Assembly (NCBI RefSeq): GCF_053078305.1
Contig: NZ_CP166879.1
DNA: 64,000 bases
Direction: 5' to 3' (one strand)
Translations under genes and position numbers: made by a program
Notes under the pieces: generated by a model
Told to the model about the DNA's origin: nothing
The model's database searches: none
Seen by the model: only the letters and a program-made list of their open reading frames with translations
Part shown: in pieces, positions 36,317-39,647 of the stretch
Position numbering within the stretch: position 1 is the stretch's first letter
Layout of the letters: every line of letters begins with the position of its first letter

Positions 36317-37600
36317 TTAGTCTTTAGCTGTTGCATTTTGCTTATGAAACAGTTCACGGAACACCGGATAAATATCATCCTGGTCGCGGATATGCTGCAT
36401 CGCAAAGTTGTCGAAAGTAGATTGCAGATGCTCATATTCTCGCCACAGTGTCTGATGCGCGCGACGGGTAATTTCGATATAGCTGTAATAACGAACAACG
36501 GGTAATAATTTTTTCGCCAGAATTTCATGGCAAAGCGGAGAGTCATCGGCCCAGTTATCGCCGTCCGATGCTTGTGCAGCGTAAATATTCCACTGTGCCG
36601 GGTTATAACGCTCTTTCACTACCTCATCCATCAGTTTCAGGGCGCTGGAAACAATGGTGCCGCCAGTTTCCTGCGAGTAGAAAAACTCATGTTCATCGAC
36701 TTCTTTCGCCTGGGTATGATGGCGGATGTATACGACTTCCACGTTCTTATACGTTCTGCTGAGGAACAGATACAGCAGAATATAAAAACGCTTAGCCATA
36801 TCTTTAGTGGATTGATCCATTGAACCGGAAACGTCCATCAGGCAAAACATCACTGCCTGGCTGGAGGGATCGGGCCGCTTCTCGTAGTTCTTGTAACGTA
36901 AATCGAAGGTGTCAATAAAAGGGACGCGTTCAATTTTGGCACGTAATTCTGCAATTTCTTTGCGCAGACGTTCCTCTTCCAGCAGCTGCGCAGGTTCACT
37001 GTTGCTGATGATGGCCAAATTCTCTTCCAGTGCATGAAGTTCCCGCCGCTTGCCTGCCGTCATGGCTGTGCGTCGCGCCAGTGAGTTCTGCAAGGAACGC
37101 ACAACGCTGATATTGGCCGGAACGCCGTTAGCGGTATAACCCGCCCGATGCGTTTTATATTCGGTCAGCTGGCGTTGTTGGTTTTGTTTCAGATTCGGTA
37201 AGGCCAAATCTTCAAAGAGCAGATCAAGATACTCATCTTTCGAAATCTGAAAGACAAATTCATCCTGACCTTCACCATCCTGGCTGGCCTGGCCCTGACC
37301 ACTGCCGGAACCTCCGCCGCCACCCTGGGGACGTTCAATTCGGTCGTTCTGGACGAAATGGTCATTGCCCGGATGTACGCGGTGGCGCAGGCCGCCACGC
37401 CCCTGATGAAACATCGGTTCGCTAATATCTTCCGTGGGAATGGATACGGATTCGCCGCTGTCGACGTCAGTCACCGAACGCTTATTAATGGCCTCGGAGA
37501 TCGACTGTTTAATTTGCGCTTTATAACGGCGTAAAAAACGCTGGCGATTCACCATGCTTTTGTTTTTGCCGTTCAGACGCCGGTCAATAAACCAGGTCAT
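36317..37600 (-). CDS. yeaH: UPF0229/DUF444 protein YeaH
   Basis: 427-aa ORF with Gly-rich low-complexity stretch; downstream partner of yeaG. Confidence 0.9.
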
Positions 37601-37712
37601 ATGCCCCCCGTACTACATTTGCCAACTGTATGCTACGCCTGTGTTGCCATTTCTCTGGCCCACGGTTCGCTGTCGTTGTAGGCCCGGTAGCATGTGTACC
37701 GGGCCAGGGTTG

Positions 37713-39647
37713 TTAAGACGATTTACGTACGCGCAAATACCATTCGCACAGTAAACGCACCTGTTTACGGGTGTAGCCTTTTTCCATCATACGGTCGACA
37801 AAGTCGTCGTGTTTCTTCTGCTCGTCGGTTGACGTTTTGGCGTTAAACGAGATAACCGGCAACAGCTCCTCGGTATTGGAGAACATTTTCTTCTCGATAA
37901 CCGTGCGCAGTTTTTCATAGCTGGTCCAGTTCGGATTGCGTCCGCTGTTATTGGCTCTGGCGCGCAGTACGAAGTTAACAATCTCGTTGCGGAAATCTTT
38001 TGGATTACTGATCCCCGCCGGTTTCTCGATTTTCTCCAGCTCGGCGTTAAGAGACTCGCGGTCAAACAGCTGCCCGGTATCCGGATCGCGATACTCCTGA
38101 TCCTGAATCCAGAAATCCGCGTAGGTAACATAACGGTCGAAAATGTTTTGCCCATATTCGGAATAGGATTCAAGGTAGGCCGTCTGGATCTCTTTGCCAA
38201 TAAACTCGGCATATTTCGGGATCAGATAACCTTTCAGGAACTCCAGATAGCGTTCTGCCTGCTCTTGTGGGAACTGCTCGCGCTCGATCTGCTGTTCCAG
38301 GACGTAGAACAGATGGACCGGGTTTGCCGCCACTTCTACATGATCGAAGTTGAACACGCGGGAGAGGATCTTAAACGCAAAACGCGTCGACAGACCGTTC
38401 ATCCCTTCATCGACACCGGCGTAGTCACGATATTCCTGATACGACTTGGCTTTGGGATCGGTGTCTTTCAGACTTTCGCCATCATAAACCCGCATCTTTG
38501 AATAAATGCTGGAGTTTTCTGGCTCTTTCAGGCGCGAAAGAATGGAAAAACGTGACAGTGTTTCGAGCGTGCCAGGGGCGCATGGGGCGTGAGTCAATTC
38601 ACTGTGATTAAGCAATTTCTCGTAGATTTTTATCTCTTCGGAAATGCGCAAGCAATACGGCACCTTCACGATGTAAACACGATCGAGGAAGGCTTCGTTG
38701 TTTTTGTTATTACGGAAAGTGACCCATTCGGACTCGTTCGAGTGGGCAAGAATAATCCCGTTGAACGGCAGGGCGGAGATACCTTCCGTCCCGTTGTAGT
38801 TACCTTCCTGAGTGGCGGTTAACAGCGGATGCAGCACTTTAATCGGTGCTTTAAACATCTCAACGAATTCCATGATCCCCTGGTTGGCGCGGCACAGTGC
38901 GCCGGAATAGCCATAGGCGTCTGGGTCATTCTGCGCGTAGTGTTCGAGTTTACGAATATCGACTTTCCCTACCAGCGCGGAGATGTCCTGGTTGTTCTCA
39001 TCACCGGGCTCTGTTTTGGCGATAGCAATTTGTTGCAGAATGGACGGCCAGACCTTCACTACCCGGAACTTAGTAATATCGCCACCAAATTCATGCAGAC
39101 GTTTTGCCGCCCACGGCGACATGATGGTGCCGAGATAGCGGCGAGGAATGCCATACTCTTTTTCCAGAATCTGCGCATCTTCCTGCGGATTGAAAAGACA
39201 GAACGGATGATCGTTGACCGGGCTACGCTCACCGTTGGCGCTCAATACATAAATCGGTACGAGCTGCATTAATGATTTCAGTCGCTCAGCAAGCGATGAT
39301 TTACCCCCACCCACAGGCCCCAGCAGATACAGGATTTGTTTCTTCTCTTCCAGCCCCTGAGCCGCGTGTTTCAGATAAGAGACAATCTGTTCAATCGCGT
39401 CTTCCATGCCGTAAAACTCTTCAAATGCCGGATAACGTGCAATGACCCGGTTAGAAAAGAGTCGAGAAAGTCTGGGTTCCTGGGCTGTATCGACCATGAC
39501 AGGCTCACCGATAGCCATCAATAGCCGCTCAGCCGCGTTGGCATAAGCACTGCGATCTTGCCGACAAGTGGTAAGAAACTCCTGCAGTGTGAACTCTTCG
39601 TCCTTGGCAGCTTCATATCGCTGGCGATAGTGATCGAATATATTCAT
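37713..39647 (-). CDS. yeaG: PrkA-family putative Ser/Thr protein kinase YeaG
   Basis: 644-aa ORF with Walker A motif GPVGGGKSS. Confidence 0.93.
   Translation of the reverse strand: MNIFDHYRQRYEAAKDEEFTLQEFLTTCRQDRSAYANAAERLLMAIGEPVMVDTAQEPRLSRLFSNRVIARYPAFEEFYGMEDAIEQIVSYLKHAAQGLEEKKQILYLLGPVGGGKSSLAERLKSLMQLVPIYVLSANGERSPVNDHPFCLFNPQEDAQILEKEYGIPRRYLGTIMSPWAAKRLHEFGGDITKFRVVKVWPSILQQIAIAKTEPGDENNQDISALVGKVDIRKLEHYAQNDPDAYGYSGALCRANQGIMEFVEMFKAPIKVLHPLLTATQEGNYNGTEGISALPFNGIILAHSNESEWVTFRNNKNNEAFLDRVYIVKVPYCLRISEEIKIYEKLLNHSELTHAPCAPGTLETLSRFSILSRLKEPENSSIYSKMRVYDGESLKDTDPKAKSYQEYRDYAGVDEGMNGLSTRFAFKILSRVFNFDHVEVAANPVHLFYVLEQQIEREQFPQEQAERYLEFLKGYLIPKYAEFIGKEIQTAYLESYSEYGQNIFDRYVTYADFWIQDQEYRDPDTGQLFDRESLNAELEKIEKPAGISNPKDFRNEIVNFVLRARANNSGRNPNWTSYEKLRTVIEKKMFSNTEELLPVISFNAKTSTDEQKKHDDFVDRMMEKGYTRKQVRLLCEWYLRVRKSS

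Follow-up and report, generated by a model that had tools for sequence, protein, structure and literature searches.

The adjacent Escherichia coli genes yeaG and yeaH raise two questions: what their products, a PrkA-family protein and a DUF444 protein, do together, and what the spacer between the two genes contributes. The locus was studied in a window of 64,000 nucleotides (nt) from contig NZ_CP166879.1 (NCBI RefSeq assembly GCF_053078305.1), the window being the whole stretch of DNA that was analysed. Both genes lie on its minus strand (Table 1), and an earlier note, made from the sequence, had described them as a conserved PrkA-type kinase and its partner. The surrounding region is E. coli chromosome, a 4-kb stretch being 100% identical to strain A30, in whose annotation yeaG is 'protein kinase YeaG' and yeaH is 'YeaH/YhbH family protein'. 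The locus is the E. coli yeaGH operon, and the system is already known. The biochemistry of the module is disputed (kinase, protease or neither), and the present results sharpen the hypotheses.

The account we favour, with a probability of about 0.8, is that yeaG and yeaH form one operon encoding an AAA+ ATPase and a von Willebrand factor A (vWA) partner, and that the spacer between them holds a hairpin acting at the RNA level, a remnant of a repetitive extragenic palindromic (REP) element, and a block complementary to the small RNA SdsR. A single mRNA would start in the 435-bp region upstream of yeaG from NtrC/sigma54 and RpoS promoters, which are reported in the literature and consistent with the sequence. 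It would carry a conserved leader of about 93 nt holding an SdsR/Hfq site, and would encode YeaG and YeaH acting together. YeaH, a protein with a vWA domain and a metal-ion-dependent adhesion site (MIDAS), would dock a client and the YeaG ATPase ring would remodel it, by comparison with NorQ/NorD, RavA/ViaA and the Rea1 MIDAS. SpoVR/YcgB, encoded elsewhere in E. coli, would be the third partner, and the net effect would be a slowed metabolism in starvation.

The operon and its spacer

Published work already treats the two genes together. NtrC and RNA polymerase are bound at the yeaGH operon in nitrogen-starved cells, where ChIP gives an NtrC peak (PMC4066584). Inducing conditions are nitrogen starvation, low pH, high osmolarity, stationary phase and sulphur limitation, and single and double deletions of yeaG and yeaH share a phenotype, namely a shorter recovery lag and worse long-term survival (PMC4664914). 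McQuail and colleagues reported that RpoS- and RpoN-dependent promoters drive yeaGH, that SdsR represses translation via a site at -31 to -22 in the yeaG leader, and that deletion of sdsR raises YeaG protein 1.8-fold and YeaH 2.1-fold with mRNA unchanged (PMC10954441). During nitrogen starvation the operon is described as acting as a "metabolic brake". In six bacteria, Price and colleagues observed that yeaG, yeaH and ycgB, the last of the SpoVR family, show tight cofitness, the three genes forming one operon in most bacteria and two in E. coli (bioRxiv 10.1101/072470). The earlier note's conserved module linked to stress and starvation is thus supported (PMC4664914, PMC10954441). Separate, unlinked expression of the two genes, which it had named as the finding that would speak against such a unit, is contradicted by the published co-regulation. 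The spacer also shows neither a promoter-like site nor a terminator with a U-tract. A good terminator stands past yeaH and is likely the 3' end of the operon. No Term-seq 3' ends at yeaG were found in a literature search.

The spacer had been called structured, with a 9-bp inverted repeat. This repeat is perfect: arms GGCCCGGTA (37681-37689) and TACCGGGCC (37697-37705) are 9 nt long and 100% complementary, and enclose a 7-nt loop; folding gives a stem of 9-10 bp. A perfect repeat of at least 9 bp is present in only 0.28% of 5000 shuffled spacers (P about 0.003). The stem motif GCCCGG..CCGGGC, belonging to a palindrome of type GCCCGG-N-CCGGGCCTAC, has one copy in the 64-kb window versus 0.07 expected. 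The whole 136-nt region, however, folds no better than its shuffles (z = -0.6), so that the description as structured holds for the hairpin and not for the spacer as a whole.

The locus was then compared across 80 Enterobacteriaceae species. A strong single hairpin is present in nearly all of them, usually beginning within about 12 nt of the yeaG stop codon (modal offset 7 nt), with a median folding free energy (dG) of -19 kcal/mol. The GCCCGG...CCGGGC type accounts for 53 of 81 sequences, with 49 distinct sequences. The lowest six pairs of the stem never change, and pairs 7-11 covary through compensatory changes: at pair 7, 18 sequences have T-A and 16 have C-G; at pair 8, 18 have A-T, 11 G-T and 6 G-C. 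Buttiauxella, Cedecea, Kosakonia, Atlantibacter and Shimwellia also have a hairpin at this position, but its sequence is unrelated. Within E. coli, the 112-nt spacer is kept as a single copy, with the hairpin intact, in all 5424 matching complete genomes.

The hairpin is not an intrinsic terminator, because it has the GC stem of one and lacks the U-tract. Its tail is TACAACGA, with no U-tract 3' of the stem, and the terminator scan, which requires at least 5 T in the 8 nt 3' of the stem, does not report it; no orthologue among the 80 species has 5 T in those 8 positions either. We conclude that the hairpin is probably a selected, or at least persistently retained, element working at the RNA level rather than a transcription stop. 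Its preferred function would be that of a barrier to 3' exonucleases, protecting the yeaG segment of the mRNA; alternatively, it would modulate termination-proximal translation and decay. Positioned within 15 nt of the yeaG stop, it could also hinder ribosomes as they terminate, an effect reported for REP elements by Liang, Rudd and Deutscher in 2015. Either mechanism would shift the YeaG:YeaH ratio without ending transcription.

One observation weighs against an RNA-level function: the sequence at the foot of the stem does not vary and CCTAC comes directly after it, so that the hairpin could be a REP-type element maintained at the DNA level. A selfish, REP-type origin must be taken seriously as a rival, since both features are reminiscent of REP architecture. 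The hairpin would then be the remnant of a mobile palindrome of the REP or bacterial interspersed mosaic element (BIME) type, functionless for yeaGH and persisting in the transcribed spacer. Like REP/BIME and other intercistronic stabilising stem-loops (e.g., malE-malF), it is a GC-rich palindrome without a U-tract, in a transcribed spacer just past a stop codon. Many orthologous spacers are BIME-like, the hairpin ending in ...CCTAC followed by an inverted GTAGGCCGGAT...REP, and the GCCCGG..CCGGGC motif recurs at a second site in three loci. Other relatives carry insertions resembling enterobacterial repetitive intergenic consensus (ERIC) elements, and spacer length varies widely. Yet the offset from the stop codon is kept even in genera with an entirely different hairpin sequence, and in E. 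coli the adjoining REP is decayed and the hairpin intact in every one of the 5424 genomes. The hairpin is also single-copy in the window and departs from the E. coli REP consensus, and the whole spacer stands at one place per E. coli genome. We hold such an origin without function to be rather improbable.

Turnover in the rest of the spacer is high. Across the 80 species, in which YeaG is 95-99.8% and YeaH 89-99.5% identical, spacers range from 57 to 296 nt and are mostly unalignable; the hairpin and a block near the yeaH ribosome-binding site persist. Many spacers of 110-130 nt hold a canonical REP-like palindrome (GTAGGCCGGATAAGC...GCATCCGGCA). In the window this corresponds to a decayed REP-like remnant (Table 1). 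The spacer is a hotspot for small repeat elements. No complete E. coli genome gave a megablast match to a 122-nt variant with an intact REP, present at locus L002; the 5424 genomes all have the 112-nt form. Spacers of about 195-296 nt with insertions occur at loci L007, L008, L010, L013, L023, L024, L030 and L074. In four of these, all from Citrobacter (L007, L008, L010 and L013), the central inverted repeat of the insertion is 1-2 mismatches from the ERIC1R and ERIC2 primers.

The other persistent element precedes yeaH. A consensus AGTTGGCA(AATGCAG)TAC-GGGGGG lies directly upstream of the start codon, and its core GTTGGCA recurs 20-28 nt 5' of the ATG in 68 of 81 species, inside an otherwise unalignable spacer. 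The sdsR gene was located in the same strain by Rfam (RF00111, 114 bits). Duplexes were computed with the single-stranded SdsR seed, unrestricted prediction with the full-length RNA having given meaningless 90-nt duplexes. The single-stranded 5' part of SdsR, nt 13-29 (CUGCAUU-AA-UGCCAACU), pairs with AGUUGGCA and AAUGUAG at 37613-37627, in a duplex of 15 bp (8 + 7) with a 2-nt bulge and a dG of -19 kcal/mol; the cross-species consensus gives -21.4. This energy is only mildly better than that of shuffles, 21 of 300 of which equal it, and this tells against the pairing.

Published RNA interaction by ligation and sequencing (RIL-seq) data include chimeras labelled sdsR:::yeaG.yeaH.IGT, which map to K-12 positions 1868803-1868944 in three replicates at two time points, with counts of 43/36/65 at the onset of nitrogen starvation and 64/98/149 after 24 h (PMC10954441 and its supplementary tables). 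The K-12 sequence is identical to the window at the SdsR block. By U00096.3 coordinates, which place the yeaH ATG near 1868955, the chimera interval would begin at the yeaG 3' end, stop about 11 nt short of the ATG and cover the block. A predicted yeaH site is drawn in Figure S6C of the same study; proof by compensatory mutation exists only for the site in the yeaG 5' untranslated region (5'UTR) (PMC10954441). The SdsR interaction with the spacer is therefore already in published data, and what is new here is its exact placement, abutting the Shine-Dalgarno sequence, together with its phylogenetic conservation. SdsR would repress yeaH translation directly at this putative site, in parallel to the proven site in the yeaG leader. 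Of the spacer elements, the SdsR block and not the hairpin has the closest link to published regulation data.

The hairpin might instead be a leaky stop, either intrinsic without a U-tract or Rho-assisted, which would yield abundant yeaG-only transcripts and partial co-expression. A strong GC stem (dG -16.8 kcal/mol) directly past the stop codon and its conserved position would fit, and a surplus of ATPase over its vWA partner would suit a hexameric ATPase. This is an unlikely explanation, given that a T-run follows the stem in 0 of 80 species, RIL-seq fragments start within yeaG and extend up to 11 nt short of the yeaH ATG, EcoCyc classes the spacer as intra-transcript, and the levels of YeaG and YeaH protein shift together. 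On the preferred reading, in which the hairpin acts on the mRNA and leaves transcription to continue, the two mutable RNA elements of the spacer would be handles on the YeaG:YeaH ratio in starvation and recovery.

YeaG and YeaH as an ATPase and its partner

YeaH matches Pfam DUF444 (PF04285) over its full length (E = 4.2e-191; 636 bits versus a cut-off of 27) and the NCBIfam equivalog PRK05325 (NF003708; 843 bits versus a cut-off of 466). A sequence-profile search against the PDB returned nothing significant, the best relevant match being the CLCA1 vWA domain (E = 2.3), aligned on the MIDAS motifs. Structure prediction, which the earlier note had proposed as a check, was more informative. The AlphaFold2 model has a mean predicted local distance difference test (pLDDT) score of 87, exceeding 90 over most of residues 230-420. 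In its N-terminal half there are long helices and a Gly-rich disordered loop; the C-terminal alpha/beta domain, at about residues 230-425, is of vWA type.

With this C-terminal domain, Foldseek yielded 89 PDB matches at E of at most 0.001, and among the 50 listed nearly all are of vWA or integrin I type, aligned over about 190-230 columns. They include CMG2 (9.5e-7), chains of factor B/C2 that contain vWA domains, the MIDAS domains of Rea1 and MDN1, and the NorD chain of the NorQD AAA+ complex (2.9e-5). The complete MIDAS signature, formed by D256, S258, S260, T315 and D346, is invariant in 112 cluster representatives that are 37-59% identical to YeaH. By this model, DUF444 is not fold-less: the C-terminal half of YeaH adopts a vWA fold whose MIDAS metal site is intact, and an earlier published statement that YeaH resembles no known protein no longer holds.

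YeaG matches two Pfam families with cut-offs of 25, AAA_PrkA (PF08298; E = 1.3e-187, 623.5 bits) and the PrkA C-terminal domain (PF06798; 8.7e-71, 239 bits), and NCBIfam PRK15455 at 1342 bits versus a cut-off of 576. The Walker A motif pointed out in the earlier note is present at residues 110-118, and G110, P111, V112, G113, K116, S117 and S118 are invariant in a six-sequence alignment (A2). The K116A substitution abolishes YeaG function (PMC4664914). YeaG also matches the Thermus PrkA structure 9xip (E = 7.5e-51), with 9xiq and 9xir deposited as well; a literature search found no paper on 9xip.

YeaG is labelled a Hanks-type kinase in the literature. Protein-kinase Pfam families have no match to YeaG even at E of at most 10. 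The C-terminal PrkA domain (residues 382-644), modelled from an alignment of 20 sequences from enterobacterial and Thermus clades, is entirely helical (pLDDT 79.8; predicted template modelling score 0.61). A bilobal Hanks-type fold with a five-stranded beta N-lobe is absent from this model, and a fold-library search found no kinases among its structural neighbours. For the orthologues, B. subtilis PrkA has been reported as a protease lacking kinase activity (PMC9512850), and carefully purified B. anthracis PrkA had neither kinase nor protease activity (PMC13001217). The modelling weakens the Hanks-type kinase assignment but does not exclude it, since the C-terminal model is of moderate quality.

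Should YeaG be a true Ser/Thr protein kinase after all, YeaH (with YcgB) would be the regulator or substrate in a phosphorylation cascade. This is in line with the RefSeq name and with reports of in vitro autophosphorylation, casein phosphorylation and loss of function upon K426A substitution (PMC4664914, including work by Tagourti and colleagues as cited there; bioRxiv 10.1101/072470), and a phosphoproteome study, as cited in PMC9512850, named AceA as a target. Given the missing kinase Pfam match, the all-alpha C-terminal model and the Bacillus orthologues inactive as kinases, we regard a cascade of this kind as unlikely. Of the PrkA-type kinase first described, the PrkA family stands and the activity is doubtful: 'kinase' is for YeaG a family label, not an established activity.

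YeaG-YeaH is thus read as an AAA+/vWA-like pair, because YeaH has the MIDAS and vWA fold and the YeaG C-terminal domain shows no kinase features in the tests made here. The nearest comparison is with MoxR-type pairs (NorQ-NorD, RavA-ViaA, CbbQ-CbbO, and Rea1/midasin in cis), in which an AAA+ gene likewise adjoins a vWA gene with a complete MIDAS. Among the structural matches of the YeaH model are the NorD chain of NorQD and the MIDAS domains of Rea1/MDN1, and yeaG and yeaH give the same mutant phenotype. Differences are that YeaG has a 260-residue C-terminal domain, that YeaH has a distinct N-terminal half of 230 residues, that SpoVR is a conserved third partner, and that the match of YeaG to the MoxR clade is below the cut-off. 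A literature search found no paper linking PrkA to vWA or MoxR. In the best-supported reading, YeaG-YeaH would be closer to AAA+/vWA remodelling machines than to a kinase cascade, as an analogue of the MoxR/vWA systems rather than an established member.

Several points count against this reading in addition to the reported in vitro activity and the K426A result. Clade assignment within AAA+ is limited to sub-threshold matches (Lon, E = 0.007; AAA_5, 0.011; Mg-chelatase, 0.22), and B. anthracis PrkA is assigned to the classical AAA+ clade in a 2026 paper. The C-terminal model of YeaG is of moderate quality and comes from a shallow alignment. With the AAA+/vWA pair still preferred, the invariant MIDAS and a YeaG without kinase features direct attention to client remodelling and to the client or metal, rather than to phosphoproteomics. 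The additions made here are incremental: hairpin conservation, SdsR placement, the YeaH MIDAS, and the non-kinase look of the YeaG C-terminal domain.

The three-gene module in other genomes

The two-gene module had been described as widely conserved. It is conserved, but the conserved unit is larger, since it consists of three genes, PrkA-DUF444-SpoVR. The order PrkA-DUF444-(small open reading frame)-SpoVR was found in 5 of 5 fully resolved distant loci (L083, L085, L087, L088 and L091) and is consistent in three partial loci. In the window, no SpoVR-family gene adjoins yeaH downstream; a terminator, cdgI and dgcJ stand there instead, and the third gene, ycgB, is located elsewhere in E. coli (bioRxiv 10.1101/072470).

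The prkA-yhbH genes of Bacillus (plus spoVR) share Pfam families PF08298/PF06798 and PF04285 with yeaGH and likewise have a role in dormancy entry or stress survival. They differ in that YeaH scores under the equivalog cut-off of the spore_yhbH model (TIGR02877; 1.5e-70, 238 bits versus 468), which indicates a different subfamily, and in that E. coli does not sporulate. The claimed activity also differs by organism (kinase, protease, or none).

The module was also found in phage-like contigs (L083 3051-8662, L085 628-5516, L090 1961-4856 and L091 1892-6735), beside genes for a phage phiTE C-terminal domain, YopX, Lar, a 5'-3' exonuclease, DNA polymerase A and an ssDNA-binding protein. YeaG is unusually well conserved: its homologues in distant, partly phage-like contigs are 58-75% identical to it, and the YeaH encoded beside them only 38-51%. 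Homologues of YeaH occur in uncultured megaphages of 595-642 kb, in the Ralstonia jumbo phage RsoM2USA, and in Thermus and Bacillus phages. Giant phages appear to carry the whole PrkA-DUF444-SpoVR module. The 30.8-kb record of Enterobacter phage LAU1 (MN688132.1) has at 2025-3305 a yeaH, annotated YeaH, whose product shares 93% identity with that of E. coli; this looks like chromosomal DNA of the host that entered the record by transduction or mis-assembly.

A more far-reaching proposal can be put forward only tentatively, being somewhat less probable than its opposite. YeaG-YeaH-YcgB/SpoVR would be an AAA+ motor with a vWA/MIDAS adaptor, serving client remodelling or metal insertion and not a kinase cascade. 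It would be an old, portable system borne by giant phages, with the spacer hairpin and the SdsR site as two RNA devices tuning the motor:adaptor ratio independently of transcription.

Coordinates, promoters and neighbouring genes

The gene identities and open reading frame (ORF) coordinates given in the earlier note are right, in agreement with the ORF list, Pfam, NCBIfam and the A30 annotation, and the lengths of the spacer and of the upstream region, 112 and 435 bp, were also reproduced (Table 1).

Table 1. Features of the yeaGH locus, in window coordinates
Feature	Position	Strand	Remarks
Intrinsic terminator 3' of yeaH	36284-36312	-	11-bp stem, then TTTTT; 4 nt past the yeaH stop codon; separates yeaGH from cdgI
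yeaH	36317-37600	-	427 amino acids; DUF444 protein
YeaH MIDAS motif D256-V-S258-G-S260	36821-36835	-	DxSxS
yeaG-yeaH spacer	37601-37712	.	112 nt
yeaH Shine-Dalgarno sequence GGGGGG	37604-37609	-	G-rich run conserved in all species
SdsR-complementary block AGTTGGCAAATGTAG	37613-37627	-	-27 to -13 of yeaH; abuts the ribosome-binding site
Decayed REP-like remnant CCGTGGGCCAGAGAAATGGCAACAC	37641-37665	-	Aligned by eye with the intact REP-like CCGTAGGCCGGAAAAGCAAAGCGCATCCGGCAATAC of locus L002; similar elements in many genera
GC-rich stem-loop	37681-37705	-	7 nt past the yeaG stop codon; dG -16.8 kcal/mol; no U-tract
yeaG	37713-39647	-	644 amino acids; AAA+ ATPase domain and PrkA C-terminal domain
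Walker A motif GPVGGGKSS of YeaG, residues 110-118	39294-39320	-	Fits GxxxxGK[ST]
Published SdsR pairing site, yeaG 5'UTR	39669-39678	-	-31 to -22; compensatory-mutation reporter (PMC10954441)
Divergent regulatory region yeaG/mipA	39648-40082	.	435 bp; divergent mipA at the far end
sigma54-type -24/-12 element TGGCATgagagTTGCT	39751-39766	-	One mismatch to TGGCAC-N5-TTGCW
Candidate RpoS-type extended -10 element CTACGCTTAAT	39812-39822	-	Within the strongly conserved block 39842-39810

The complex upstream regulation suggested earlier is supported by the published RpoN/NtrC and RpoS promoters, by the SdsR site in the 5'UTR, and by a conserved sigma54 element found here. Conservation of the 435-bp region among 77 Enterobacteriaceae species is patchy, with strong blocks at 39886-39855, 39842-39810 and 39766-39751 and over the whole 5'UTR (39717-39648). 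Matches to the sigma54 element within the window are by count alone no higher than chance; across the 77 species, its GG and TTGC are conserved and the 5 nt between them variable. The element predicts a transcript start at about -93, the position at which the published reporter has its 5' end (PMC10954441). For the SdsR site in the yeaG leader, the duplex calculation recovers the same pairing, GUGCUAAAA / UUUUAGCGCAC, and the site is conserved across species. The RpoS-type element is a candidate only, by its likeness to the sigmaS extended -10 consensus.

Two upstream blocks, 39855-39886 (GGATGAGTTGTTGATATGCCATTGAAATTAAG) and 39810-39842 (GCAAGTTTTCCATTTGCCATCTACGCTTAATTTTGAAGG), are strongly conserved and have no simple match to the NtrC consensus. 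They are candidates for enhancer or integration host factor (IHF) sites and for the RpoS promoter. With TGCACC-N5-GGTGCA and at most 3 mismatches, no NtrC site was found in the upstream region, and the count over the window is at chance level. An Rfam scan of 36000-40400 at E of at most 1 found no known RNA family. A 75-residue ORF at 39644-39871(-), whose end overlaps the yeaG start in an ATGA, was considered as a coupled upstream ORF and rejected, being open in only 4 of 77 species; it is probably spurious, because it is poorly conserved and begins upstream of both inferred transcription starts.

A promoter of its own for yeaH, in the spacer or the yeaG 3' end, is very improbable: the conserved TTGGCA resembles a -35 hexamer and yeaG deletion altered yeaH mRNA only under nitrogen-replete conditions in published work, but a scan of 37601-37760 found no promoter-like site, the distance from TTGGCA to the start codon is too short for a -10 element and a leader, and published data treat the two genes as one operon.

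In comparison with E. coli K-12, the locus is the same. YeaG has the same protein accession as in MC4100, a K-12 derivative. Of the 112 spacer nt 4 are different, all outside the stem arms and the SdsR block, and the promoter elements and 5'UTR site are shared, with no substantive difference. The nearest relatives of the strain are A30 and TUM13936, baboon and human isolates. Of 5426 complete E. coli genomes, 5425 contain the yeaGH region, each in a single copy. Two of 5430 matches to it are on records labelled as plasmids, which may be mis-assigned replicons or large chromosomal segments on plasmids.

Beyond the yeaH terminator lie cdgI and dgcJ, and mipA is on the other flank. The first-ATG ORF of cdgI spans 34695-36038(-) and 447 residues, and the RefSeq feature spans 34695-36170(-) and 1476 nt, so that the annotated start is further upstream.

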